DNA of 62,566 nucleotides, the filler included, from Basidiobolus ranarum (lineage: Eukaryota): assembly GCA_040143965.1 (NCBI GenBank). It is 6 parts of 6 records of this genome, joined end to end, with 100 filler letters (N's around TTAATTAATTAA, not from the genome) between each part and the next. Parts side by side here need not be neighbours in the genome. Positions count along the whole stretch, not along the records: positions 52,255 to 62,566 come from JASJQH010000717.1; 5 more parts are not named here. One strand, given 5' to 3'. Positions within the stretch are counted from its first letter, which is position 1, and every line of letters begins with the position of its first letter. Both the position numbers and the translations under genes were made by a program. Below, piece by piece: positions 19,271 through 62,566 of this stretch. The notes beneath the pieces were generated by a model that did no database searches, had not been told where the DNA came from, and saw only the letters and a list, made by a program, of their open reading frames with translations.

Positions 19271-19279
19271 TTATCAGAT
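19271..19279 (-). promoter_or_regulatory. ATCWGATAA GATA-type (SreA/Sre1-like) site
   Basis: TTATCAGAT about 290 bp upstream of ORF 19562; near-match GTCAGATAA at about 19454. Confidence 0.3.
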
Positions 19280-19561
19280 TTCATAGAATCTTATCTAGCT
19301 TATTTTCTGAATATTCTGATCACTCCAAATATTGCATTAAGATCGCTTTAAAATGTAAATTGGATTTACTTCGAAATTCTTTGATCGTCACTATTCATAC
19401 GTAAGAGTATGGTCCAGAATGGATAAAAATGAACCATCAAAGACTGTCTCCTTGTCAGATAAATATTTTGATCTAGAATTCTGTAATGCCGAGTCATATC
19501 ATGAAATGGAAAACCTCTATTTAAGGGCCACAAGCTCATTCATTTTCGAGTAATACTTACA

Positions 19562-20149
19562 ATGAAAAACTCTCAAGAAAAGTCAGAAATTCATATCTCG
19601 CAAGGAGGAGATTTTCGCACCAAAGTCTCCAAGTTCTTACTGGATCCAATTTCATCTATTCACGTTGCTTTGATTGTTCTAATATTTACTTATTATTTCA
19701 AACCATTGGAAAAAAACTCCTCTCCTAAGGCCCAAGATGCTCAGCTGCTAGTCTTAAATAGTGTGTGGGCAGGTTTTTTACTTGCTATATCATTTATGGA
19801 AGCTTGGGTAAAGTTCTGTGCACCTACACAGATTCGAGTGCGGACTTTAGATATTGGGAGACATGTCTTTAGTGCGCTTAACAAAGTGGAAGTTGTTTTC
19901 AGCGTGCTTATTGGTTTCAATTGCGTTCGACAAGGCTCTTTCTTTGCTCAACTTGTAGGACCATTGGTCGTACTTACCGTACAGTCCGTCTGGCTACTAC
20001 CGTCGCTTATTCACCACGCTGACTGTTTATTGACGGGAAAACCTGTTCCTGGGAATACCCATCATGTTATGTATGTTCTTTTGGAGGTTGTAAAAGTGAT
20101 TACTTTCTCTTACTGTATTTCAGTTTACTATACAAGACTTACTAGCTAG
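19562..20149 (+). CDS. Multi-pass membrane protein, DUF4149/TMEM205-like
   Basis: Intronless 195 aa, about 5 hydrophobic helices, motif WAGFLLAISFMEAWVKFCAP...DIGRHVFSALNKVE, His-containing HHVMYVLLEVVK. Confidence 0.7.
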   Translation: MKNSQEKSEIHISQGGDFRTKVSKFLLDPISSIHVALIVLIFTYYFKPLEKNSSPKAQDAQLLVLNSVWAGFLLAISFMEAWVKFCAPTQIRVRTLDIGRHVFSALNKVEVVFSVLIGFNCVRQGSFFAQLVGPLVVLTVQSVWLLPSLIHHADCLLTGKPVPGNTHHVMYVLLEVVKVITFSYCISVYYTRLTS

Positions 20150-20844: not shown

Positions 20845-20944
20845 NNNNNNNNNNNNNNNNNNNNNNNNNNNNNNNNNNNNNNNNNNNNTTAATTAATTAA
20901 NNNNNNNNNNNNNNNNNNNNNNNNNNNNNNNNNNNNNNNNNNNN
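20845..20944. other. Artificial contig-joining spacer
   Basis: N44-TTAATTAATTAA-N44. Confidence 0.98.
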
Positions 20945-31301: not shown

Positions 31302-31401
31302 NNNNNNNNNNNNNNNNNNNNNNNNNNNNNNNNNNNNNNNNNNNNTTAATTAATTAANNNNNNNNNNNNNNNNNNNNNNNNNNNNNNNNNNNNNNNNNNN
31401 N
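31302..31401. other. Artificial contig-joining spacer
   Basis: N44-TTAATTAATTAA-N44. Confidence 0.98.
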
Positions 31402-32160
31402 AGACTCTTTATCATTCCTCCTGAATCTTAGGTCTTTGTCAACTTGAGGCCTATAAGTATAGAGCTGGAAAAGAGCACTGACGATCACTAATCCGAAAAG
31501 TCCACCAATCATGGCATATATTTTTCCAGTTGGAGCATAAACAAGAGCCGAAGAGCCGCTCCAGTAGTAGGCTAAGTGTGATTTAAATCCGACTCCAATT
31601 AACTCGTCCAAGGGTAAAATCGTCATATAGCTGCCTAACATCGCACTGTGAAAGATGAAAGTGTACTTCTTGACAAAATACACACTTATCAAGCCTACCA
31701 ATGCTAGAACCGCAACAAATACTTGGGCGATGATATGATTTTGTATAAGGAAGCCTTCACGTACTGACAAAAGGCTGAATCCTAAGGTGATACCACCTAG
31801 GCAACCCAATGGTATACGGGCTAGTTTGCGGAAATAGATCCATATAAATCCTCCCAACAAAGCACTACCAAATACGCTAGGGAATAGAATTCCCAAATCT
31901 TGGATGTGGTTTGTCTCCTTGACACAGATGAATGCAACTAATCCCCACATCACTCCACTAGCTAGTACAGTGGTCACACGATAGGAGTATTGACTAAGAA
32001 AGCAAAAGTAAATTCCAATCACTAATGAAACAAAAGTGAATACAACAGTGGGAATGTCGACGGGAGTTTCAGAGAAGATTCCTTGTGCTGTTACAGTTGG
32101 GAGGATTAATAGAATCGAGCATAGAAAACGTTCGAGAATGATCCGTTGTTTGTTTATCAT
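31402..32160 (-). CDS. DUF4203 (TMEM198/TM7S3-like) membrane protein, C-terminus truncated
   Basis: Signal peptide then about 7 TM helices; GxxGG repeats, FHSAMLGSY motif; paralog of 32802-33569. Confidence 0.75.
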
Positions 32161-32801
32161 GGTTTATGCTGGTTTAAAATTAGAGAAATGGGTAGCCAAC
32201 TTTTTGATTTTTCAAAATGAAACGTAGGTTACTTTTATACTATTACTATCACTACCATGCTAGCAACAGTGTATTCTTGGCGCGATCAGAAAAATGCCAA
32301 GAATCATTTTTATGGTAGATTTGTTCGACTTAAACTAGTTTGCTACTACAGTTAATATGTAGCATGATCATAGTGTAGTGGCTAGAATATTAAAGAACGA
32401 TCATCAACATTTATTTCAGCCTAAACAAGTCATTCGCAAATTTCAACCATGTCATTCTATTAGTAGCCAAGTCGTTAATAAGTGAATACTCTGAGTCAGA
32501 TAGTTGAATGTTCTCTAGCCTCTTCTTCCCAAATGTGTGGATGATGGAGAGTAGGTTAATCTTAATATGCGTTGAAGAATACTATCCCTGAAACATTAGT
32601 GCCTCCAAACCTACTACTCAATATCTGGTTAGGAAACAAACTACGTCTCCAAGCATTGAAGGCTTAGATATTCAAAATTTCTTGATTAGTTCTGCATTCG
32701 AGCCAAGCCGAGATATCCTGAATTAACTTGGAATATAAGTAGCTATTAGAGCCTTAGGTGTCTGTAGCCTATTGTTGCATTATTACGTGCCACTATTAGA
32801 T

Positions 32802-33569
32802 ATGTTCTGCTTGGCCATTCACGGGGTATCTACTTATTTCCTATTCTTCATTCTTGCAGGGTCATCCTGGGCGGCTCCTGATATCCCTGGGTTGCCGGTT
32901 GATCTTCCTACGAAACCTGGAGATTATACTATCACACCACAACCATCCGTGATAGCAACGATCAGGATCATAGTGGGGTTCTTCTTCTGCTTCTTAGGAC
33001 AACGATTCTTCAAACTTGTGTTATTCTTTGCTGGGTTTGTCACTGTTGGGTTTGTTGCGTATATTGTCTGTTACAAAATTGCTCCACCAACCACATCCTC
33101 TAAGGCCACCATATACTTAGTGGTATCAATAATCAGCGGCATCATTGGTGGATTACTGTTTGCTTGTCTTTGGAAATTGGGATTGATAGCCATTGGAGGA
33201 TTGGGTGGATTCGCACTCAGTATGTTGATACTGTCACTCAAAGACGGATTATTAATTAGTAACTCCACAGCACGCTATATTTTCATCGCCGTATTTGTTA
33301 TAATTGGAATGATGCTGATCCTCTTTTTTGAAAAACCTCTACTTATATTGGGAACAGCAATCACTGGCTCCTATTCTCTTGTAGTTGGTATCGATTATTT
33401 TGCACGCACTGGATTCACCCAACAGCTTGTAGATTTTCTAAATGGAAGTGGGCAAGTGTTCTATCATACTACGGGGGCTGTCTATGGCATGATAGCTACG
33501 TTGGTAGTGTTATTTATTATCGGCTCTGTCGTTCAATTCAAAACCTATCATGGTAGGAACGAGAAATAA
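32802..33569 (+). CDS. DUF4203 (TMEM198/TM7S3-like) membrane protein
   Basis: Signal peptide; GFFFCFLGQRFFKLVLFFAGF, GGLGGF, GTAITGSYSLVVGIDYF, GSVVQ motifs. Confidence 0.85.
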   Translation: MFCLAIHGVSTYFLFFILAGSSWAAPDIPGLPVDLPTKPGDYTITPQPSVIATIRIIVGFFFCFLGQRFFKLVLFFAGFVTVGFVAYIVCYKIAPPTTSSKATIYLVVSIISGIIGGLLFACLWKLGLIAIGGLGGFALSMLILSLKDGLLISNSTARYIFIAVFVIIGMMLILFFEKPLLILGTAITGSYSLVVGIDYFARTGFTQQLVDFLNGSGQVFYHTTGAVYGMIATLVVLFIIGSVVQFKTYHGRNEK

Positions 33570-45645: not shown

Positions 45646-46705
45646 GACTCTATAAATTAAAGGAAAGAAAGGGAGAATCCAGCTCGATACTAGTGACTAA
45701 AGAGAACGTTTCTTGAAATCTTGATTGAACTATCATCACATGACTGAGGATTATTATTCTTGGGTCTTCGTTGAAGTGAATTATAATTACAAGTTGAAGC
45801 AACAACTTTGAAACACACTTCCAGATACTCTTACATTCTTAAAGTAGCTGTAGTTTGATTTGATTGAATCGACCAGATTAATTTCATTTATACTAATATT
45901 AGCTATAATCCGATGATAAGCGAATCACCAGGAAACATGAGTAATACTTTTAGGAAGGCCAGATTTAGGTTAAAGGTAGATATTACTGTTGTCTCTAACG
46001 TAGTTAGGTGGATATACAGAAGTAGGTGACTCCAACTGCAGTAGAGGGGTTCTTGCGTAAACAATAATAAGAACAGTTACGAAAAACCAAGTAGTTAGGC
46101 AAGCTACTGGAATTAGATGTTTGCACCCGATTCTAGAAGAATTCTATATCGGTCCTGTAATTTATACACCGTTACACGATGTAACCAAATCCTCCAATAC
46201 CAGAGAGATTCACTAAACAACAATGCTATTATAAACGTCAGCTCGTACTATGACGCATACTCCGTTCCCTGTCTGTATCAGTGATATCTGACTTGCTATT
46301 GGTGTGAAGTTGAACCTTTCACGAGTGAAAATTTGTGAGTGACTTGACCTAGCATTGAAGTCCTTTGTATGGTGGAATCGACATGCACAATAGATCTCAG
46401 GAATCAGACATCCGCTTTACTTCCAGAACATTGCCTTATTAGGTGATATGACCCCCATTGGCCTGTCTCTATAAGTCACACCGCATATAGAATAATTTAA
46501 ACAGTTGATTGAAGAACTTCTAGAACAGTTGTACAGATTCAGTAATGGAAGGCGCTGATTATGACTATTGTCAACCAATCCGATCTGATTAAAATTTATC
46601 GATTTCAAGTGGGGTGACACGAAAGGCAACATATAAAATAACTGGTGTGGGCTTAGAACTACTTTGTCAGAAATCCTCATCCTAACCCTCTATTGTATTT
46701 AAATC

Positions 46706-47818
46706 ATGAGAATCTCTACTACGCTACTTGCTACTATTATCACTCTCCTATCGACCAGCGTTCAAGGTCAAGACCATGGAGGCATGAACATGAATCCTAG
46801 CTCTAATAATACTTCTATTCCCATGACTAGCCCATGCTATACCGACCCATCTACCTCAAGCTGTGCGGATTTTCAAATGGAAAGTGCCACTGTTGATGCT
46901 AGCATCCAAAGTCTCTGTACAGCGATGCCATATATGCCTGGATGTAGTGTCAGAAATGCTTGTACCGCTACTTCCCAGTTCAGCTCAAAGTCATGGTGCA
47001 GCGGTATGTCCGTACTCGCTGATGTCTGCCAAACGGATATGCCAAAAATGACTGGGTGTAAAGCTTGGGTATCATTGTGTGGAAACAGTACCTCTGTAGT
47101 CAAGCAATGTAAAAGCCAGGGGGAAATTCCTAATATTCCTACCACCTCCGAGGCCTCAGGTTTCATCACCAGTATCTGTACAGAGATGAATATGCCAGGG
47201 TGTGAGAAGTGTAAATCATCCTCAACTATGTCTAAAAGACAGATGGACATGTCAGGCTCCGAAACTTGTGATTATCTCTCTGTTTATTCCGATCTTTGTA
47301 AATCCATGCCCAACATGAGCCAATGCCAAAAATGGACCTCCATGTGTAAGACCACTCCTGATCTCCCTTTCTGTACTAGTGGCTCATCAAGTTCTGGAGA
47401 ACCAGCTCCATCCATGATTATGTATTTCCACACTGGTATTCATGAGTACATTTTGTTCAAGAATTGGATACCTAAAACTAGTGGGCAAATGGCTGGAGCC
47501 TGGTTTGCCATTTTCTTCATTGGTATGCTTTATGAGGGATTCGGTGTACTTCGGGGTAACTTGGAAGCTAAATGGGCCCTTACTAACCAGCCATGCACCA
47601 CACTTTCCTTGGGTGCTTTCACCGCAAGTTTACCCAGAGATTGTGTCAGATTGGTTTTGAGATTTGTCGATGCTACAATTGGATATGCTCTTATGTTGGT
47701 TACTATGACATTCAATGTTGCACTGTTCTTCGCCGTAGTTACCGGACTAGCAGTAGGAACCTTCTTATTCGCTAAATTCAGGGCTGTATCAGCAGAACCA
47801 AAAGCTGGTTGTCATTAA
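46706..47818 (+). CDS. CTR-family copper transporter with signal peptide and Cys/Met-repeat ectodomain
   Basis: MIMYFH before TM1, MLVTM (MxxxM) in TM2, GLAVG in TM3, C-terminal CH; repeated CxxMxxMxxC motifs in the N-terminus. Confidence 0.9.
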   Translation: MRISTTLLATIITLLSTSVQGQDHGGMNMNPSSNNTSIPMTSPCYTDPSTSSCADFQMESATVDASIQSLCTAMPYMPGCSVRNACTATSQFSSKSWCSGMSVLADVCQTDMPKMTGCKAWVSLCGNSTSVVKQCKSQGEIPNIPTTSEASGFITSICTEMNMPGCEKCKSSSTMSKRQMDMSGSETCDYLSVYSDLCKSMPNMSQCQKWTSMCKTTPDLPFCTSGSSSSGEPAPSMIMYFHTGIHEYILFKNWIPKTSGQMAGAWFAIFFIGMLYEGFGVLRGNLEAKWALTNQPCTTLSLGAFTASLPRDCVRLVLRFVDATIGYALMLVTMTFNVALFFAVVTGLAVGTFLFAKFRAVSAEPKAGCH

Positions 47819-51943: not shown

Positions 51944-52154
51944 GACTAGGCGAAGTGATCCACAAGAGTTATAGAAACGGCAAGTTGCAATGGACTGTAA
52001 ACACCACCGAAGAAAGTGGAAGATGGGATGAAGGGGTTGAACCCTCCAGTGGCATGCAACCTTAGTTATTTATTAATGTCAAGTAACTCACCTTGGTAAC
52101 CATGATTGGATACCATGGATACCTAGAAGTGAGCACTCGGTCAACTTTGAATTA

Positions 52155-52254
52155 NNNNNNNNNNNNNNNNNNNNNNNNNNNNNNNNNNNNNNNNNNNNTT
52201 AATTAATTAANNNNNNNNNNNNNNNNNNNNNNNNNNNNNNNNNNNNNNNNNNNN
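52155..52254. other. Artificial contig-joining spacer
   Basis: N44-TTAATTAATTAA-N44. Confidence 0.98.
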
Positions 52255-53518
52255 TCATAACAGAGACTACTCTGTGTATTCTCTGTATTATTTAGTTTCT
52301 GTAGATGTTATCAAGGTTACACTTGAAGTATCTCTATCAATGTCCAATTGTTAACTCCTTCGTGAATGGCACAATACCTGGGTTTTCTCGTGGTGCATAT
52401 AGTGGAAAGGATCTGTTCCTGAAAAAGTGAGAGAAATCTGAACCTTTCGCGCAGGGTTCAAGTGGAGGTTATTGGAACTTGTGTGTTGCTATTTAGCTAA
52501 TTTAACCCAAATGTTACGACCTCATGTATGGCTAATGGCAGATGAGAACAACATGTTACTGGAAATGTGATGGATCTTGAAAAATCTATAATAGCAGAGT
52601 GCTGTTGGTGGTGGACAAGTTTGTGAGTATACCATAGATAGATAGAGAAATTTTCCAGTTCTCAAACTAACACGCACTTGTTCGATAGATGTGCTGTATG
52701 AAGATGACTCGAACATGGGAAATGCCATTCAATCTCTAGCATTACAACATATGGCAAGAGAGAGAATTTATTTCTCAACAACAATTGTACCAATAGAAAT
52801 GCCATCAGTTACATCTTAGGATTAACTACCATAATAAACTTTGCGAGCTAATGTCACGATACACATAAGTCAAGCTATACATGCAGCCATATGTATGTTT
52901 ATTCATGCGAATAATCTGAGTAATGGTACGACAGTTTCTACAATATAAACAATGCAAAAGTACACTTCAAATGATTGGTGGAATCTACGAAACCCGCACA
53001 ATCACAGTCATGATCAAGTCACACTGAAGCAGGGAAATTGTTGCCGAGTTAAGACTTCGGTATCTACCATCTTGAATATAACTGGGCTAGGTTTTTCCAT
53101 CCTATATTTGCATTGCATCTATAAGCAAAAATGAACAAGTTGAATCTAGGGTTATATACATAATTGAAATGCAGACCAACCGAAATGCAAAACATCCGAA
53201 ATGACGTTGTACTCCTATTCGTTAGGGTTAGTGGTGAAGTATCGGGTCGACAAGTATTGGGTCGTTGCTAGCACGGGCTAAATTCAAGTCGAAAAGGCTT
53301 ATTTTTCCATCAAATTTATTAATACACTCGGTGTCCTCTCTGAAACCGGAGGTGTATTTGAATCATTTGTATAAATTCATAGTTGGTGCAAAATGACACT
53401 AACAAATTCCTAAGTAACATTTACTACTTACACTTCTACTTCCACTTTCATTAACAGCTTTACATAGCTATCTAGGTACTTAAGACACCACGTTTACGAT
53501 CTCCACATTGAAAACAAG

Positions 53519-53815
53519 ATGAACTGCTTTTCCTTCTTAACCACAGCCAGCTTCTTATTGATCTTGGTAACAGCACAAGAAAGCCTAACAAGTAATGTAC
53601 TTGAAGTGAATAGAACATGTGCCATGAATTGTTTGACGAATCTAGCTCCATGCTACCGTTGCGGTGGTGAATGGACATCGTGTACAGCAAAATGTAACCC
53701 AAATGATGTTAAATTAATGACTGGGAAATGCTTCGATACATGCTTTATTGGCACCGTACAGTGTGTTGGAAAATGTATGCCACTTAATGTGTGTATCGGA
53801 GGATGCATCATGTGA
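53519..53815 (+). CDS. Small secreted cysteine-rich protein (12 Cys in mature part)
   Basis: Signal peptide MNCFSFLTTASFLLILVTA; six CxxC/CxxxC pairs; TATAAAT upstream at about 53370. Confidence 0.75.
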   Translation: MNCFSFLTTASFLLILVTAQESLTSNVLEVNRTCAMNCLTNLAPCYRCGGEWTSCTAKCNPNDVKLMTGKCFDTCFIGTVQCVGKCMPLNVCIGGCIM

Positions 53816-53861
53816 CATCTTGACTGTTTACTGTATGCAATATGCATGTTTATCAATGAAT

Positions 53862-53908
53862 TGTTTTTACTGTTTTTACTGCTTTTACTGCTTTTACTGT
53901 TTTTACTG
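53862..53908. repeat. 9-bp tandem repeat (TGYTTTTAC)x5
   Basis: tgtttttac tgtttttac tgcttttac tgcttttac tgtttttac tg, downstream of the 53519 gene. Confidence 0.9.
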
Positions 53909-55013
53909 AAAATAAACATCCTCCCTATAATATTAGTGGTTTTCTATCTATATCTCAAAAGTCGTATATGGGCAGCATTCAAGTATAAACTCCATCAACG
54001 CCATTTGGCCTTGTACTCTGATGTTATATGACTATCTGGATAATCAATGAAAGATTCAGAATATTGCCATTTGTTCATATTTGTGATGAATGTAGAATCT
54101 ACTTCACTCCTAGTTGGAAATGAGAAACTGCTTATAGATAGTTGGGAACGATTATACTTATATAAGCTCAATGGACAATTCTCATCCCGATTAAAGTTCA
54201 TAATACAATGTTGAAGCAAGCGTATGAGTTTTTAGGCTACCAAGGAACAATTACAGGAATGAAGATGAATTTTCCTTGAAACTTCCCTTGATAACTTGAT
54301 GCTACGAATGAAAGATGTGACAATCTCTAGTGAGATGTACATCTAGCAGATATGATTTTATTTACCTTGTACCAGTTGCACTGTTATAAGCAGCATGTAT
54401 AGGTTTGCCAGGATATGTATAGGCTGAAATAGAACGACCATACCAAGATAATACGAATGTGGAGGTTTTTGCTGTAGTCATCGAACAATTAGACACCTAC
54501 TTACTGTCAATATACTCAAGATAATATAGTATCAGTATTGGAAACCACAATATATACCCCAGCTTAAGAAGTAAAAGTATGCGGTAGAAAAAGTGCTCTG
54601 GGCCCATCATGTTAGGAATGAAAATCTGGGTGAAAACTACCCGTACATACGTTACACCAGGTATCTGCAGATATTCAAACTTACACCAGCCTTTACTAGC
54701 CAAGATTATAGTAAATTTCGAAGAATTTAGCAATAAGTGGGAAAGTATTGTAACTGAATTCTGTACTTTCTTGAGTTCATGTACCACAAACATTATCAAG
54801 TGATCTCCACCTAACACGCGGAAGAAACTTCCACTATTAAGAGTATAATTTGAACTAAAGTGTAATAGTCAAGGGGCGTCTCGGAACGATAGATTACACC
54901 AAAGTTATAGTCTGTAAATGGAATAAACAAACCACACAACTTTGATAATTAGTAATAAATGCCTTATGATTGGTTTCTATCCTTTTGAAAATTAATATAA
55001 TAGGAAAACAATA

Positions 55014-55175
55014 TTATCAGATCAAATGTATCAAATAGTTGAAGGTGACTAATACTAGCAATAATCCTAGCAATTTGAGTTCATATTATTATCAGATCAG
55101 GTTATGCTTAAAATATCTGATTCGCACACCAGTGTAACCCATTAGAGAATCAGATAAATATATGTTTTATCTGAT
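55014..55175. promoter_or_regulatory. Cluster of four perfect and one near ATCWGATAA sites (iron-responsive GATA repressor element)
   Basis: TTATCAGAT 55014 and 55089, ATCAGATAA 55149, TTATCTGAT 55167, near-match ATATCTGAT 55113; 320-490 bp upstream of ATG 55499. Confidence 0.75.
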
Positions 55176-55498
55176 CTAGAGGGATTAAAGATATTGAGTA
55201 AATGAGTTGCTAATTTATATGGTCTTAATTTTTTTCTTCCAAGAAGGTTACTGCATGGCGAAGAAAAGGAAAGAGGCCAGATTTATTATTGTTTTCGGTT
55301 CTATTGTGCTACTTTGCTTCAACTTTTAGGTAACTCTAAGTTAGCCCGAAACCCCATCTTTTCACTGGAGCCTATCGTGTTTTAACTACTAGGGCTTTCA
55401 AGTCAACTAATAATTTCCAACGTTGTGAGCACGAGCATACTAAGTCAGTATATATACCGAGGAAGCTCTTCCCTATCTATCACCACAATATCTACAAA

Positions 55499-56848
55499 AT
55501 GCAATTACTTTTCGTCGTATCCCTTGCAGCTGTGGCTATGGCCGCTAAACATGAAAAGCGCGCTACGACTTGTGCTGGAGCAGCCTACAATGTACCTTCC
55601 TTCAGTGGTTGTATCAATGATTGTAATCAAGTAAGTTAAGATATCTAACTTTGATGTTATACCCCTTCACTCAAAAATTCCTTTTAACATACTAATCATC
55701 TCCTTTATAAATTAGAAAGCTGGTCAAAGCTTCTTTGATGGCTACTCCAAGGATCCTACAAGTCCCAATCTTGTAAAATCTTTGTCTTATGAATGTGACT
55801 CCGGTAATCCTGATCGTACTGCGTTCATGACGAAAGCTGGAATATGTATGGTGGGTTGCTCGACTGAAGAGCAAAATGGTTATTCGGGAGGATACAAAGC
55901 AATGTGTGACTGGTATAAGGAACACATAAATGATGTATGCGTACCTGCAGAGACCCCTGCACCACCACCCGTTGTAGAGACTCCCACTCCTACTCCTGAG
56001 CCAGTTGCACCTGTTGAGCCTACTCAATCTCCTCCCACTCCTACCTCAGAGTCTATTGCACCAGTTGAGCCTACTCAATATCCTCCCACTTCTAGCGTAC
56101 CCACTCAAGAGTCCCCTATTGCTAGTCAAATCCCTGAAGAATCCACTTCAGTAGTAGTGAGCCCTACTGCTACCTCAGCAGTTCCCTCCTCTACATGCCA
56201 AGCAACCCCACCATATACTGGACCAACTTTTGACTCGTGCATCAACAACTGTAATGAGGTATGATGCCTTTTTCCCACAATGATTCAGATCCTTGATATA
56301 ACTAATGTACTATTGTTCCATAGCAAGCTGGAAAGACATTCTTCGAAGGATACTCTAAAGATCCCAACAGTCCCAACCTCATCAAATCCCTTTCTTACGA
56401 ATGTGATCCTAGCAATGCCGATCGTACATCTTTCATGACAAAGGCTGGTATTTGTATGGTTGGATGTACTACCGGGGAACAGGATGGCTATACCAACGGA
56501 TACAAGGCAATGTGTGGCTGGTATGAGCAAAACAAGTTGAATACTCCAAGCGACTGCAGTGTAGTCAGCCCCACTAGTTCCAGTGTACCAACTGCTACCT
56601 CTGTTGATGTTCTCCCAACCACCTGTCAACCTCTTACTGTGACAGTTACTAGCACTGTTACTCTCACTGATATTCCTCAGCCAACTCCTAACCCCGTTAC
56701 ATGCAACCATGGAGCTTATGCTTGTGAAGCTGAAGGAACATCAGCGAAATTCACCATCTGCGTATGGGGTAAACCAATTTTGGAAATGTGCGCACCTGGT
56801 ACTGTTTGTAAGACCTTTGGTGATTCCATCATCTGTGATTGGGCCTAA
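55499..56848 (+). CDS. Gene A: secreted protein with two unnamed Cys-rich domains, Pro/Thr linker and C-terminal CBM19-like chitin-binding module
   Basis: Signal MQLLFVVSLAAVAMA, KR site, introns 55631-55715 and 56259-56323; C-terminus CNHGAYAC...FTICVWG...MCAPGTVC. Confidence 0.85.
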
Positions 56849-57368
56849 AACCTTCTTAAAAGACGTATTATTTTGAAGAGAAATGTATATTCAACGATAT
56901 AAGTAAAGAAAATCTCCACTTTTGAGATTACATGTTTTATTTGTCAACTGAAACAAAAGGCTTAATTAATATGAAATGAAATTTAATAATTATGCTTTGA
57001 CTTTATCTACATTCGATCTGCTTACTCAAAACACAATTTGTCACCAACTTCCAGAATCTATAAACTTTGACTGGTTATTTATATTACATATTAAACGATA
57101 TATAATGTAATATATATTTCGAGTTTATTAAACACGAACTACTTGTTTCTCTTGCACTTCATCATCGGTTCTCTACTATCGCTCTCTAAATGTAAGTTAA
57201 TATATCAGATGCTTTTGGGGCATTTTCACTCCCTGTTGTATTGTACAACGATAAGTACAAATACCACATTCATTGATAAAATTAAGCCAACATGAGGATT
57301 AGTAATATTGACAGTAGCACTTAAGTGCATGGTTAGTTACACATACTACCTGTTCAATTCCACCACTG

Positions 57369-57496
57369 TTATCAGATTCGTTTCTCATCTGCATATTATT
57401 TCTGGTAACAACTACAAAGTTTTCAATAACAAATTCTTAATAAGCTCTATTTTAAATGGCGTTTTGCAATCGAATATCTGGGTAACCTTATCAGAT
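57369..57496. promoter_or_regulatory. Two perfect ATCWGATAA sites upstream of gene B
   Basis: TTATCAGAT at 57369 and 57488; near-match at 57202; TATATATA at about 57549. Confidence 0.7.
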
Positions 57497-57596
57497 CTAA
57501 TGCGGATACCCATAATAAAATTAAAAAAAACTTCTTCTCATAAGAGAGTATATATAGGGAACAGAAGATCTACGAATTTCTCATCAAGTCTACAAA

Positions 57597-58764
57597 ATGC
57601 GTCTTGCTTTGCTATTGAGTTTTACTGCTGTTGCTATCGCCCGTCCAGTTGTTGATGGAGAGGGATTTGTCACTTTGAATAAACGTGCCACAACTTGCTC
57701 TGGGGCAACATTTGACTTACCCGCCTTTAGTGCTTGTATTACCAATTGCAATACGGTATGTTAAGTCAATATAGATGTTTCTAACTTTTTAAACTTATTG
57801 TTAATGAACATGTAGAAAGCTGGAAAGGAACTCTTTAGCAATTATTCGAATGACCCAACCAGCCCAGAATTTATCAAATCTCTCTCTTATGAGTGTGACT
57901 CAGCTAATCCTGAACGTACCTCTTTCATGACCAAAGCTGGAATCTGTATGGTCGCCTGTACTAAAGAAGAGCAAGATGGATACACTAATGGATATAAGGC
58001 CTTCTGCGGTTGGTACCAAGAACATAAGAGTGATACTTGCCAACCAAAAGAAACTCCCTCCCCATCAGTGAAGCCTGAGCCTACTGTATCCACTCCAGAG
58101 CCGGCCCCACCAGCTGCATCAGTCCCTGCTTCTAATAACCCACCTCCAGCTGCTTCAAGTCCCTCACCAGCTCCTCAAAACTCTACTCCCCTCTCATCTC
58201 CATCACCAAGTGTAGCATCTTCCGCCAATGGGTCATCTGCTACCAATGTCGCTCCTAGTGCAACACCTTCTGCCAGTAAGTCGACCTCCGCCAATTCTAC
58301 TGCTAGTACCGCCCCAGTTGCTCCTGTATCTTGCAAGGAATTAGGTGACTATAAACTCGCCAGTCCTGGCTCATGCATTGATGATTGTAACTTGGTAAAT
58401 ATTTCTACTTCTACACTGTGTCATATGAATTTTACTGAAACCATTTCTATCATAGCAAGCGGGTCGTACTTTCTTCTCCGACTACACCAAAGATGCCAAA
58501 AGCCCCAACTTCGTTAAATCTCTAGCTTATGAGTGCGATAGATCCCATGCCGACCGTATCTCTTTCATGTCTAAAGCTGGAATTTGCATGGCAAAATGCT
58601 CTACAGCTGAACAAGACTCATACACTAATGCATACAAGGCCATTTGTGGCTGGTATAGTCAAAAATTAACTTGCACCGCTGACTCTACTTCTGGATCCTC
58701 CGTCATTTCTGTTTCAAAGAACATGGCATTATTATTTGCTCTTCCATTGATTATGGGCTTGTAA
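57597..58764 (+). CDS. Gene B: predicted GPI-anchored protein with two copies of the same Cys-rich domain and a Ser/Pro/Ala linker
   Basis: Signal MRLALLLSFTAVAIA, KR site, introns 57756-57815 and 58395-58455; C-terminus STSGSSVISVSKNMALLFALPLIMGL. Confidence 0.85.
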
Positions 58765-58996
58765 GGTTACAAATTTGTAGTCACAGCTCAATTACAGACT
58801 ATTACATATTTCGTGTTGACATCAATATCATATCTTAATTATTACCTCAATTAGCATTGTTCTAAGTTTAATAAATATGATGTAACTAGAAGAATTCTAT
58901 TCACTGATTATTACAATATTAAACTTTGGAATTCAGATGATAAATTCGAACACCAATAACTCGTAGTGGCTATTAAGTATCTGGCTTCAACCACTG

Positions 58997-59005
58997 ATCT
59001 GATAA
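58997..59005 (+). promoter_or_regulatory. ATCTGATAA site upstream of the pseudogene
   Basis: Perfect ATCWGATAA. Confidence 0.5.
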
Positions 59006-59019
59006 ACAATGTTTCTATT

Positions 59020-59642
59020 GACTGGTGCAAGAGGTTGTATAGACAAATGCAGGAGTTCAAGAAATTCTCTTATTCCAAAGCTGCACGTCTCAACGACATG
59101 AAGTACCAATGGTGATATCTTCTCCGGAGATAAATGACGTGACGAATTCGATGGCTATGCTCTAGCATCGAACTGGTCTCGAATACCCCATCTCTGGCTG
59201 ACCCAAGTTCCTCTTCATTTCTACTGTCCTACCATCCTCTTCACCAATACAGCACCCCTTGCCAGTAATAGTTGATCCTATATGTAAAGAATTTGGTGAC
59301 TATAAACTTCACAGTTCTGGCGTATGCGTAACCTTTGTTAAATGCTACTATTTCTATACTATATGAAATATGAGTGAGCGGGCCGGACTTTCCTCCCCGC
59401 CAAAGATGCGAAAATCCCGAGCTTCCTGAAATCTCTCGGCTATGGGTGCGATAGGTCCGTCCCATGCTAATCGGATCTCCTTCGTGTCTAAAGTCAGAAT
59501 TCGCAAAATAAAATTCTCTACAGCTGAACTGGACTCATACACCAATGCAAACCAAACCATTTGTGGCTGGTATAGTCAGAGATTGTCTTGCGCCGCTGCT
59601 GCTACATCCGAATCCTCCATCATTTCTGTTTCAAAGCAGTAG
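59020..59642 (+). pseudogene. Degraded paralog of gene B
   Basis: Nucleotide similarity to 58330-58720 (GGTGACTATAAACT; TCTACAGCTGAA...TCATACAC; ATTTGTGGCTGGTATAGTCA; ATTTCTGTTTCAAAG), with frameshifts, loss of the ICM Cys and a premature stop before the GPI tail. Confidence 0.8.
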
Positions 59643-60232
59643 GGGCATATGCCCTTTCATTGATTATTAACTTAGCCCTAATATCTGATCTGTATCGATA
59701 ATTATTTTGAGTTTAATTAAAAGTCAAATAGATTCCATGAAAGCCACTTAATGTTACAGTTGGAATACCATGTGTTAGTCACATCAAACTTCCGAATTTA
59801 GACTGCAAATTTGAAAGATCGATAGGTCGAGTTCTTATTAAACATCTTAATTTCGGCTGCAGAAATATACAGTGCGCCTTCGGTGAGAACATATAACTAG
59901 TCACTAATGGTCGTATATTCGAGTGACTTAGCATTACTTTCATATGTATTTACCTATTCAAATCTTTCCACGCATCAGGACCGGAGTAAATTCGGAAAAA
60001 GGGCATCTTTCAGTATTAAATCATGCATAAAACATTCATTCACACTGTATCTATTCAGATACCACACCAAAAATGGGTTTCTTGAAGAAAAGACGAAAAA
60101 AGATCAGTCATCTGTGTACCCTACGATGGAGTCGCATGATCCTCTTTGCTGGGGTTCATATTTACATGTTATCGACTAAAAGAGCGAATTGAAATGCGGC
60201 CACAGTACCACGGCAGGCTATTTAAACCGTTG

Positions 60233-60241
60233 ATCTGATAA
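60233..60241 (+). promoter_or_regulatory. ATCTGATAA site between TATA-like box and ATG of gene C
   Basis: TATTTAAA at about 60219, perfect site at 60233, ATG at 60269. Confidence 0.65.
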
Positions 60242-60268
60242 AAAGTACGAACATTCATATTAATCGAA

Positions 60269-60840
60269 ATGTTGTTTACTTCTGTTGTTTTCGCAAATCT
60301 TCTTACTCTGGCTGTCGCTGATTACCCAGGGAACAGCACAGCAAATACAGTATTTCCACTACCTAGTGCGGGAGATTGTATCGATAAATGCAACACGGTT
60401 TGAGAAACTCCCTTTTTATATAACTGCACATCTCAATTATCTTACCACTTTCTCAATATATATAGAGAGCTGGACAAATGTTCGATAAGAGTTATACTAC
60501 CGACCCTTCGATCCCATACTTCATTGACTCCTTGGATTTTGAGTGCAACTTGAGTAATCCTAAGCGCTCCCCATTTTTCACCCAAGCAGGTATCTGTATG
60601 ATGAGTTGCTCTTCGTCACAACAACATTCGTACGAAAATCAGTATGAACAAAAGTGCCAATGGTGGTATCAAGCCACTGGAACTGTGAATGATATCACCG
60701 TCACTGGAGACAAAGCAAGTGGTAAGGCTAAGGGTGATGCTGCACGCGCTGGCTTTTCCTCAGCTCCAGCTACTTTTACAAAGGCCACTCAAGGTCTTGG
60801 TACTCTAGCTGTTATAATGACCCTTGTCCATTTACTTTGA
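60269..60840 (+). CDS. Gene C: predicted GPI-anchored protein with a single divergent copy of the Cys-rich domain
   Basis: Signal MLFTSVVFANLLTLAVA, intron 60398-60465 at the same position as in genes A and B, hydrophobic C-terminus GLGTLAVIMTLVHLL. Confidence 0.85.
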
Positions 60841-61016
60841 ATTCAAGCCCCGGCATAAAGACATAATCCAGTGTTTTATAATACAATCTATTAAAGCATA
60901 CTTGAGCATTAAAAATCCTTATTTGACCCAAATATTCGCTAAAAGAGTGAACCATTTTTGACCAAGATCTTCCAATTCTTGTGATACCATATACACCTGC
61001 TTAACAGACCCCATTC

Positions 61017-61308
61017 TTATCAGATTCTTACAATCAATCAATAATGCAAAGTAAAAATTGGATGAAATCTATTTTTTGTGTATCAACATTCTTATCAGAT
61101 GATACTTTGGATCTGCATGTCGGAAAATGAGATCAATCATTGGTAATACATCGTGTAAGCCATCGCCCCAACATCCAACTTTATTTTACTTTTAGGGCCT
61201 ACTAAGAAGCATTTTAGGATGAAGTATTGTAGGATTGGGATGAAATAGGCGAAAGAGTTATCTGATCAACAAAACCATTTTCCACCTTATTTTGTCAAAA
61301 TCAGATAG
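61017..61308. promoter_or_regulatory. Three perfect and one near ATCWGATAA sites with no recognisable downstream gene
   Basis: TTATCAGAT 61017 and 61092, TTATCTGAT 61258, near-match ATCAGATAG 61300. Confidence 0.55.
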
Positions 61309-62428
61309 GGAGTTTGTTGTTGATAATTCCAAACCACTGTATCACCAAATGCATCGTTCGACGTCTGGATTGATTGTTCTCGACTCTTTAGCAACCAAGT
61401 AGGATTCAATCGAGCACACATCATGCATGATACTAATACTCGTGTGGGAAGGAAGTTGAGTATCTGATGGTCTTACTATGCTTCCTTCCTGTTACTGCAA
61501 AGGTATTAATACTGAAAATGACTTGATTCGCATTCCTTTTCAATATTACGCGTGTAACCTTATTGCTTGATATATTCATTGTTTCTGTAGGAAGCCATAC
61601 ATACACTAAGCCATGCAATTATATATATACGATATGCCATATAGCTAATAGTACATGTATTTTATGGAATAAGTGATGTTTCTTGCTGCACGTGTAACTA
61701 TGACTTCGGTCATATTATTTGAAACCTTTACTGCTCGTAGAGACAAGAATGTTGTTATTAGTCTTAGCCTCTATCTGTAATATATAGAGTAATTCCCTCT
61801 CGAAACTGTAACCCTTGCTTATATTGTAGAAGTGGAGTAAAACGAGATGGATTTCATTTACGCAATATTAGCACTTCACCAGTCTTGTAAATTCCTTAAT
61901 ATCGATAACTGAGTGACAAGTCAATCATCTTGTGCACAGAGGTAAGCTCTTAGAACGGCTTCAAGCCTCGTTTATGCTCTTAAAAATCGTTATATCGCGG
62001 CAGCCAAAAGATGGGCATTCACGTAATTGCCTCTTAAAGTATTATAATATTTGACCCTCTATTGCTCTTACCATCAATCTTTGTAATCTTTGATAGATAG
62101 AGCTAGTTCTTAGGAGGCAGCTTTTTTGATTATAGTAGCTATTTTAACTGCTGGTGCTATTTGCTATCTCTCAATAGGTCCTATATCCTTGTCCTAAACT
62201 TCTTCCACCTTCATGATTAGTTATGTTTGAGCATCAAAAGGAGATAATACATGCTCAGATAGAGGTACTTATGGGACATAGCTTTTTACAGGAGGGCAAT
62301 GTGGAAACATATAAGTAGCGTAAGAGAACCAATCTCAAATATGCTATGATCAACATCACTTATGCATTGATGAGTGGGTTTTTTAGATTTTAAAGTACTT
62401 CAACAATATCTCAGTAAAATCTATATAT

Positions 62429-62566
62429 TGTTAAAGTGTTTTAGGGGCCTGTTGGAAGTGGTTTCGACAAATAGAGAAATTGGTGGTTTTCACTCATTGA
62501 TTTATTGAGTAGAAAGTTAAACTTTATGCGTTTGTCATGATGTAGATAAAGTAACGTAGAGATTGT
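62429..62566. mobile_element. LTR copy truncated by window/contig end
   Basis: TGTTAAAGTGTTTTAGGGGCCTGTTGGAAGTGGTTT matches 5164-5300 in the same orientation. Confidence 0.8.

Follow-up and report, generated by a model that had tools for sequence, protein, structure and literature searches.

Candida species possess iron-starvation-induced CFEM hemophores that are secreted or held at the cell surface by a glycosylphosphatidylinositol (GPI) anchor (PMC9635878; PMC7693903, excerpt); in the Candida albicans cascade Csa2 is the secreted member and Rbt5 and Pga7 carry GPI anchors, and the Candida CFEM genes are among those most strongly induced by iron starvation, under the Hap43/Sfu1 (GATA) system (PMC9635878). 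Other described systems of a related kind are FIT1, FIT2 and FIT3 of Saccharomyces cerevisiae, which are induced by iron deprivation, wall- or GPI-linked and multi-copy, retain siderophore iron and enhance its uptake (PMC8781417); the ferric-reductase N-terminal domain, a disulfide-braced helical part of the iron-uptake machinery proposed to bind substrate (Roy et al. 2022, PMC9635878); and Cig1 of Cryptococcus neoformans, an extracellular, iron-related mannoprotein outside CFEM that is needed for heme use (PMC12153323, excerpt). Iron supply governs zygomycete growth and the course of mucormycosis, and reviews of the Mucorales, in the excerpts available, confine themselves to FTR1/ferroxidase, rhizoferrin, siderophore transporters and heme oxygenase; an extracellular receptor or hemophore is not among the components they name (PMC7693903; PMC12153323; PMC4133162). 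Here we analyse a locus at 55499-60840 of a 62,566-nucleotide stretch of joined Basidiobolus ranarum DNA (the window), in which three intron-bearing genes and one partial pseudogene, all on the plus strand, share one ~95-residue Cys-rich domain. An earlier note on this DNA had proposed for the locus, rightly assigning its host to the early-diverging fungi, an iron-repressed system for heme or iron-ligand capture analogous to the Candida relay. We interpret the locus as a tandem expansion, specific to its lineage, within an undescribed extracellular zygomycete family; overall, the family is new and probably iron-regulated, and is a candidate iron-capture system. The gene models are as follows.

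55499-56848, plus strand: gene A, exons 55499-55630, 55716-56258 and 56324-56848, 399 aa, spliced model
57597-58764, plus strand: gene B, exons 57597-57755, 57816-58394 and 58456-58764, 348 aa, spliced model
59268-59690, plus strand: pseudogene, a copy of the 3' half of B with domain 2, an intron relic and the tail
60269-60840, plus strand: gene C, exons 60269-60397 and 60466-60840, 167 aa, spliced model

The introns of A, B and C are short, of phase 0 and GT..AG throughout, and the spliced products are letter-identical to deposited database proteins recovered by an exhaustive HMMER search (P0004, P0003 and P0031, respectively), the protein of gene C being deposited as 'hypothetical protein K7432_010422 [Basidiobolus ranarum]'. 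The A protein starts with a signal peptide and a KR dibasic site; its domains 1 and 2 are joined by an 84-aa P/T/S-rich linker, and domain 2 is followed by a T/V/S linker and a CBM_19-like Cys-rich tail, with no hydrophobic C-terminus. Its exon-3 translation scores 21.3 bits against CBM_19 (PF03427), narrowly above the gathering cut-off of 20.1 (E = 2.7e-4, residues 106-162), and the same tail is found in the paralogs P0065 and P0080. In the B protein a signal peptide and KR site precede two domains connected by a 94-aa S/P/A-rich linker, and domain 2 leads into a GPI-like tail (...SGSSVISVSKN followed by a 13-residue hydrophobic end). The C protein has a signal peptide and a single domain, of the six-Cys type, which a spacer of ~35 aa connects to a GPI-like tail. 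The C-terminus of B reads ...TSGSSVISVSKN + MALLFALPLIMGL and that of C ...FSSAPATFTKATQG + LGTLAVIMTLVHLL. Signal-peptide and GPI calls were made throughout with our own simple heuristic rules, not with a trained predictor; the GPI rule looks for an N-terminal signal peptide together with a C-terminal hydrophobic tail preceded by small residues and a polar spacer, a pattern that both B and C display. Since the long linker of B joins domain to domain, one of them would lie close to the membrane with the other held outward, a layout that suits a wall-spanning protein.

When family proteins were compared with the window by tblastn, the domain was confined to 55499-60840, and no relic of it was present in 52000-55498 or 60841-62566 (searched to E ≤ 10). 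The pseudogene retains ~80% nucleotide identity to the 3' half of B. It has neither an ATG nor a signal peptide, and its several indels, two lost Cys codons and in-frame TAG, together with the missing start codon, mark it as a true partial pseudogene. The spliced models, the tblastn result and the lack of any Pfam match (below) bear out the earlier description of three tandem same-strand genes plus a pseudogene built from one unnamed Cys-rich extracellular domain. The architectures then given to A (two domains and a CBM19-like tail) and to C (one domain, short spacer and, by the heuristic, a GPI-like tail) likewise hold, as do the two domains and GPI-like tail of B; the S/P/A-rich stretch of B, which had been taken for a stalk, separates the two domains and not a domain and the anchor.

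In the five intact copies as well as in the relic, the domain is interrupted by a phase-0 intron at the same point, two codons past the first CxxxC. The two domains of A and the first domain of B are 64-65% identical in pairwise comparison, with values of 48-59% for the second domain of B and 40-42% for C. Conservation was assessed on 109 domain instances from 85 proteins and is given here in B numbering: both CxxxC pairs (C47/C51 and C97/C101) are near invariant, C80 and C117 are each present in ~60% of the instances, and the outermost Cys pair (C34/C128), missing in C, in ~30%. Further conserved positions are S75 (100%), D66 (94%), F72, M91, W119 and Y120. A disulfide pairing can be proposed from the co-occurrence of the cysteines.

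The domain matched no Pfam family at E ≤ 10, whether in the five exon translations, in 47 members or in 10 further Mucorales members, and the precomputed Pfam entry is empty for all 81 listed members. Searching the PDB by sequence, with two profiles and with one protein, yielded nothing beyond chance matches to antibody light chains (E ≥ 0.1). AlphaFold2 models of C and of the 119-aa paralog P0013, built with 47- and 50-sequence alignments, have a pLDDT of 94-98 over the domain and consist of four helices, which in C span residues 36-49, 62-70, 77-88 and 93-114; neither model has a significant structural match in the PDB. As judged from these predictions, the conserved core residues and the shared intron position, the domain is real and folded.

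The exhaustive HMMER search yielded 85 representatives at E ≤ 0.001 among 1.84 billion, four of which (P0075, P0079, P0081 and P0085) lack the domain under the family HMM and are probably spurious. Among the 30 representatives looked up, 28 could be named: seven from Basidiobolus (ranarum, meristosporus), 13 from Mortierellaceae, seven from Mucorales and one labelled Malassezia nana. Two more profile searches added 12 and 68 matches, and the profile-search matches include Mucor lusitanicus, M. circinelloides, M. mucedo, Rhizopus arrhizus, R. stolonifer and Parasitella. Examples of homologs are V8B55DRAFT_1390225 of M. lusitanicus (P0113), PS15m_006345 of M. circinelloides (P0127) and G6F37_010472 of R. 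arrhizus (P0147). With the single exception of P0126, members are named 'hypothetical', 'uncharacterized', 'unnamed' or 'secreted'. By the same heuristic, 52 of the 85 family proteins have a GPI-like tail and three a CBM_19-like tail, and domain arrays reach six copies in some members. Literature searches brought up no account of this family, nor of any zygomycete hemophore, although supplementary tables of iron-limitation transcriptomes might list homologs.

In a FastTree phylogeny of 90 of the 109 domain instances (those of at least 85 residues; midpoint root, support values not inspected), Mortierellaceae, Mucorales and Basidiobolus form separate groups, and both domains of A, both of B and that of C fall with other B. 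ranarum domains, which fits vertical descent with local expansion. The B. ranarum cluster of P0013 comprises eleven paralogs, all small, secreted, of a single domain and nearly identical; they are spread over several short contigs, in part as adjacent gene pairs (for example K7432_016468/016469 and K7432_004502/004503), showing that the family is strongly expanded in this species beyond the window.

Two groups of members deserve separate mention. P0032, a partial protein of 106 aa under the Malassezia nana label, is the sole Dikarya-labelled member; it is very close to the unnamed metagenome proteins P0033 and P0009 and nests among Mucorales-like sequences in the tree, and assembly contamination or gene transfer is possible. 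In P0131, P0147 and P0045 (Mucor circinelloides, Rhizopus arrhizus and Sporodiniella) the GPI tail is replaced by one to four short Cys-rich repeats of the form G-K-K-x-G-x-G-P-x-D-A-C-C-S...C-x-x-S-C-x-x-G-K-C-N, which may be a further wall-binding or anchoring module.

Fungal two-finger GATA factors are iron repressors. The element ATCWGATAA is related to the palindromic sites that such factors read, is 5.4-fold over-represented in the SreA regulon of Aspergillus fumigatus and fits the sites mapped in vivo for Ustilago maydis Urbs1 and Schizosaccharomyces pombe Fep1 (PMC2610380, excerpt), in agreement with its earlier designation as an iron-GATA element. The locus contains eleven copies.

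55014-55022, minus strand: ATCWGATAA, A promoter
55089-55097, minus strand: ATCWGATAA, A promoter
55149-55157, plus strand: ATCWGATAA, A promoter
55167-55175, minus strand: ATCWGATAA, A promoter
57369-57377, minus strand: ATCTGATAA, B promoter
57488-57496, minus strand: ATCTGATAA, B promoter
58997-59005, plus strand: ATCTGATAA, between B and the pseudogene, ~270 bp before the latter
60233-60241, plus strand: ATCTGATAA, 36 bp before the ATG of C
61017-61266, minus strand: three ATCWGATAA downstream of C (at 61017, 61092 and 61258), 180-430 bp past its stop codon

Across the 62.6-kb window ATCWGATAA occurs 12 times against 3.19 expected, a count that none of 100 shuffles reached. Eleven of the 12 lie inside the 6253-bp stretch 55014-61266, for which 0.32 are expected (Poisson P(≥11) ~6e-14). 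The twelfth (19271-19279) stands 234 bp before an unannotated multi-pass membrane-like open reading frame (ORF; 19505-20149, plus strand) that has no Pfam match, and this lone site falls within chance expectation. The enrichment is a property of the extended element: 19 of the 124 plain WGATAA sites of the window are in the locus stretch, which makes up 10.4% of it, but 11 of these 19 are the extended sites, and once extended sites are set aside WGATAA is unenriched (8 of 112). The flanks vary from site to site, and repeated copying of some longer element therefore does not account for the sites; the palindrome is often extended by G or an extra base (GATCTGATAA).

At least one site is found no more than 490 bp upstream of every gene and of the pseudogene (A at -485, -410, -350 and -332; B at -228 and -109; C at -36, all relative to the ATG). 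The last two sites of the A promoter form an inverted pair 9 bp apart. TATA-like sequences are present in the promoters of A (tatatata at ~55449) and B (tatatata at ~57549), and the site of C lies just past another (tatttaaa, ~60219). The claim of the earlier note that every member has the element upstream is therefore confirmed, over positions -485 to -36 and at about -270 for the pseudogene, with the amendment that three further sites lie downstream of C. No ORF, gene or domain relic follows C in the remaining 1.3 kb to the window end (relic search at E ≤ 10). These sites could belong to the promoter of a gene beyond the window, to the relic promoter of a lost paralog or to a downstream regulatory cluster. 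A decayed domain copy was also considered as their explanation, and none was found at E ≤ 10.

The element also accompanies the family elsewhere. Scanning of JGI metagenome contigs with a narrow alignment of family members gave four loci, one of which (L004) ends without upstream DNA; in the other three the element lies upstream, 130-815 bp before the start codon.

L001: sites at -625, -372 and -240; ATG at 1482
L002: site at -133; ATG at 845
L003: sites at -815, -746, -411 and -333; ATG at 1138

These three loci have 47-52% GC, and shuffles predict 0.02-0.03 sites per locus; for L002, one site was reached in 5 of 200 shuffles. The genes at the metagenome loci are of the four-cysteine type seen in Mortierellaceae proteins and keep the intron position, which is thus common to Basidiobolus and Mortierella-like loci. 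The earlier note had held that homologs lacking the motif would speak against its proposal; instead, all three homolog loci with upstream DNA carry it, in three, one and four copies. The link between motif and family is conserved across species. A divergent neighbour gene that might own the sites of L001 and L002 was sought, and no convincing ORF was found.

GATA cores are common to several fungal factor classes, and the palindromic site might here be read by another factor, concerned with nitrogen, light or development, and carry no iron signal. The sole use of the motif in Mucoromycota that we found is an in-silico note on the rhizoferrin synthetase promoter of Mucor lusitanicus (PMC9226013, excerpt), which leaves room for such a factor. 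We nevertheless consider this very unlikely, since the enrichment is limited to the extended form, which is the signature of two-finger iron repressors (PMC2610380, excerpt), and is conserved in the promoters of distant homologs. Iron repression by a SreA/Fep1-type GATA factor is likely and well supported, although we infer both the regulator and the direction of control from the sequence.

Taken as a whole, the observations are best explained by an iron-repressed zygomycete family that binds an iron-carrying ligand at the cell surface and feeds its uptake, a reading to which we assign a probability of roughly 0.5. The ~95-residue four-helix domain, braced by the two invariant CxxxC pairs and one or two optional disulfides, would be presented in soluble or chitin-bound form by A, on a GPI anchor with a membrane-proximal and a distal domain by B, and on a short GPI stalk by C. 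In iron-replete cells a two-finger SreA/Fep1-type GATA factor bound to the clustered ATCWGATAA sites would repress transcription, and under iron starvation the genes would be de-repressed. At the cell surface the domain may then bind either heme or a ferric chelate/siderophore, which would be concentrated in the wall and at the membrane, thereby feeding an uptake system; whether ligand might also be handed over between A, B and C is a matter for pure conjecture. The occurrence of one small folded domain in soluble/chitin-bound, long-reach and short-reach GPI forms, and in arrays of up to six, is the layout expected of a surface capture system for a small ligand. The function is proposed less firmly than the regulation, and heme is only one candidate ligand.

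Several observations weigh against this reading. The three sites downstream of C precede nothing detectable; L001 and L003 share one metagenome and are therefore possibly not independent; and the promoters compared are those of L001-L003, with no Mucorales homolog among them. The sequence offers no obvious set of residues that could be named as metal or heme ligands, and the conserved polar residues (D66 and S69 of 'DPxSP', and S75) may merely cap helices. The dearth of nameable ligand residues, together with the fact that motif clustering supports regulation only, is also what an iron-regulated protein that carries no iron ligand would present, whether an adhesion or wall protein subject to remodelling under iron stress, an accessory to the ferric reductase/permease machinery, or a binder of another metal such as copper. 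Met91 and Met98 (FMxxxGxCM) and the aromatic residues could form part of a hydrophobic core or bind Cu(I), and a Ctr copper transporter is encoded ~8 kb upstream along the joined window, yet without the motif. Soluble, chitin-bound and GPI-anchored versions of one small domain are, however, more typical of carriers than of structural proteins, and the arrays of up to six copies fit ligand avidity, so that a non-carrier role appears to us quite unlikely.

If an iron-carrying ligand is bound, as we favour, the candidates differ in the known system to which the family is compared. The likeness to the C. albicans CFEM cascade consists in paralogous small disulfide-rich helical domains that exist in secreted and GPI-anchored forms. 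CFEM was reported to be absent from 36 species of Zygomycota, Chytridiomycota and Microsporidia (Zhang et al. 2015, PMC4530338, excerpt), and iron reviews, in their available excerpts, place CFEM and hemophores only in other fungi (PMC12153323; PMC7693903); the earlier statement that CFEM hemophores have not been described in early-diverging fungi is upheld to the extent of these excerpts. The present family thus occurs in taxa from which CFEM is reported absent, and four helices are predicted for its domain, where Csa2 is described as a six-helix basket (PMC7693903, excerpt). The Pfam CFEM model (PF05730) gave no match at E ≤ 10 in the five exon translations, in 47 members or in 10 Mucorales members, the latter including P0126.

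The eight-Cys CFEM consensus, PxC[A/G]x2Cx8-12Cx1-3[x/T]Dx2-5CxCx9-14Cx3-4Cx15-16 (PMC4530338, excerpt), was compared with those domain instances in which both CxxxC pairs are present (78 of 109). Its ends fit, with C-x3-C first and C-x3-C later, and where a further Cys follows (44 instances) it does so at x15-16 in 40. An Asp occurs 14-15 residues past the second Cys in 69 of the 78, inside the consensus window, which we read as 11-17; the conserved Asp (94%) sits in the DPxSP motif and is possibly a helix cap. The central CFEM cysteines, C3 and C4-x-C5, are absent from the 78 instances, the C2-to-C6 spacing is 44-47 as against 26-40 in the consensus (our arithmetic), and the residue after C1 is I/V/M/F, not A/G. 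On sequence grounds the match to the eight-Cys consensus is a partial one. Structural comparison gave leads of a similar kind: no CFEM structure is among the best 49-50 Foldseek PDB matches listed for either model, while in the ESM Atlas a structure search with the first domain of B reached a CFEM cluster at TM 0.54 over 70 residues, below the bar of the tool and rated 'lead only', and in a feature search with P0013 CAP22 scored 0.84 and CFEM 0.79, neither of which attains the tool's bar of 0.9. The UniRef name of P0126 (Parasitella parasitica) is 'Extracellular membrane protein CFEM domain...', against the Pfam result given above. Divergent CFEM-like forms do exist, since the N-termini of ferric reductases resemble CFEM while keeping only six of its eight cysteines (Roy et al. 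2022, PMC9635878); those domains are fused to a membrane reductase and neither free nor GPI-anchored. Cig1 is a basidiomycete protein.

Judged from these sequence comparisons, a remote kinship of the family to CFEM is possible, though we lean against it, and to call the system analogous to CFEM may understate or overstate the relation. Of the heme/iron-ligand capture interpretation put forward earlier, the tandem family, the anchoring modules and the concentration and conservation of the motif are sustained; the analogy to CFEM holds in part, given the Pfam result and the departures from the consensus. The most specific form of the heme reading is a hemophore relay in which A would serve as a soluble or wall-bound hemophore and B and C as wall-spanning and membrane-proximal acceptors, in the manner of Csa2, Rbt5 and Pga7, perhaps as a remote relative of CFEM. 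Iron-GATA control, secreted and GPI-anchored paralogs and a small disulfide-rich helical domain are all features of the CFEM cascade (PMC9635878), and the leads set out above (the Atlas scores, the name of P0126 and the partial Cys match) argue for heme or for a generic iron-chelate platform; the habitat of Basidiobolus, animal guts and dung, offers heme. Most members, however, come from soil saprotrophs (Mortierellaceae and Mucorales), for which heme is not an obvious main source of iron, and with the missing central cysteines, the longer spacing and the negative Pfam and Foldseek results also on the other side, we hold a heme-specific relay to be doubtful.

Somewhat further removed is the idea that the CFEM superfamily has in this family its long-missing zygomycete branch, a divergent four- to eight-cysteine, pre-Dikarya, iron-GATA-wired and iron-starvation-induced relay for heme or iron chelates, which strikes us as unlikely. 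Were the remote kinship to CFEM real, CFEM-type iron-ligand binding would predate the Dikarya, contrary to the published dating (PMC4530338, excerpt), and the reported absence of CFEM from Zygomycota would need revision. Agents of mucormycosis are represented in the family by proteins of Rhizopus arrhizus, Mucor circinelloides/lusitanicus and Apophysomyces.

Alternatively, the proteins may retain siderophores or ferric chelates, holding ferri-rhizoferrin or xenosiderophores in the wall and at the membrane and so increasing their local concentration for reductive uptake or for transporters, much as FIT1-3 do. The FIT proteins are an established precedent (PMC8781417), iron-GATA control combined with GPI or wall anchoring fits such a role, and the family is found in Mucorales, Mortierellaceae and Basidiobolus, lineages reliant on siderophores. 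Rhizoferrin is the siderophore of the Mucorales (PMC4133162; PMC9226013, excerpts), and Basidiobolus has an expansion of NRPS genes for siderophores and activity in the CAS assay (PMC7466969). This expanded repertoire, and the predominance of soil saprotrophs among the members, argue for siderophores as the ligand. Rhizoferrin was reportedly found in Mortierella and Basidiobolus as well, by Thieken and Winkelmann in 1992. By analogy, FIT-like siderophore retention would suit the way of life of Mortierella, Mucorales and Basidiobolus no less than heme. The FIT proteins, however, consist of Ser/Thr-rich repeats without a Cys-rich folded domain, so that the likeness to them is one of function only, and they are regulated by Aft1 rather than by a GATA repressor. 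We put siderophore retention forward tentatively, as a rather unlikely reading in its specific form.

A mostly GPI-anchored family that lacks a Pfam entry and keeps the motif across more than one phylum is a testable candidate for the missing surface step of zygomycete iron uptake. Its domain is of small size, is predicted with confidence and should be easily expressed.

The rest of the window contains nothing iron-specific; its genes encode HLH, UDP-glucose pyrophosphorylase, two TM7S3/TM198, arrestin, TCO89 and Ctr copper transporter proteins, the last of these being the ORF referred to above.

46703-47818, plus strand: Ctr-family copper transporter ORF, Pfam E = 1.5e-27, no iron-GATA motif

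Three minor features were also recorded. A 98-aa ORF at 53519-53815 (plus strand), ~1.7 kb upstream of A, has a signal-peptide-like start and 13 cysteines; its sequence is unrelated to the family, and ATCWGATAA does not occur nearby. A run of N at ~20850-20892 appears as X in an ORF translation, which marks the source as a scaffolded assembly. The two TM7S3/TM198 genes are divergent ORFs at 31354-33569 that both match the TM7S3/TM198-like domain, and constitute a local gene pair.

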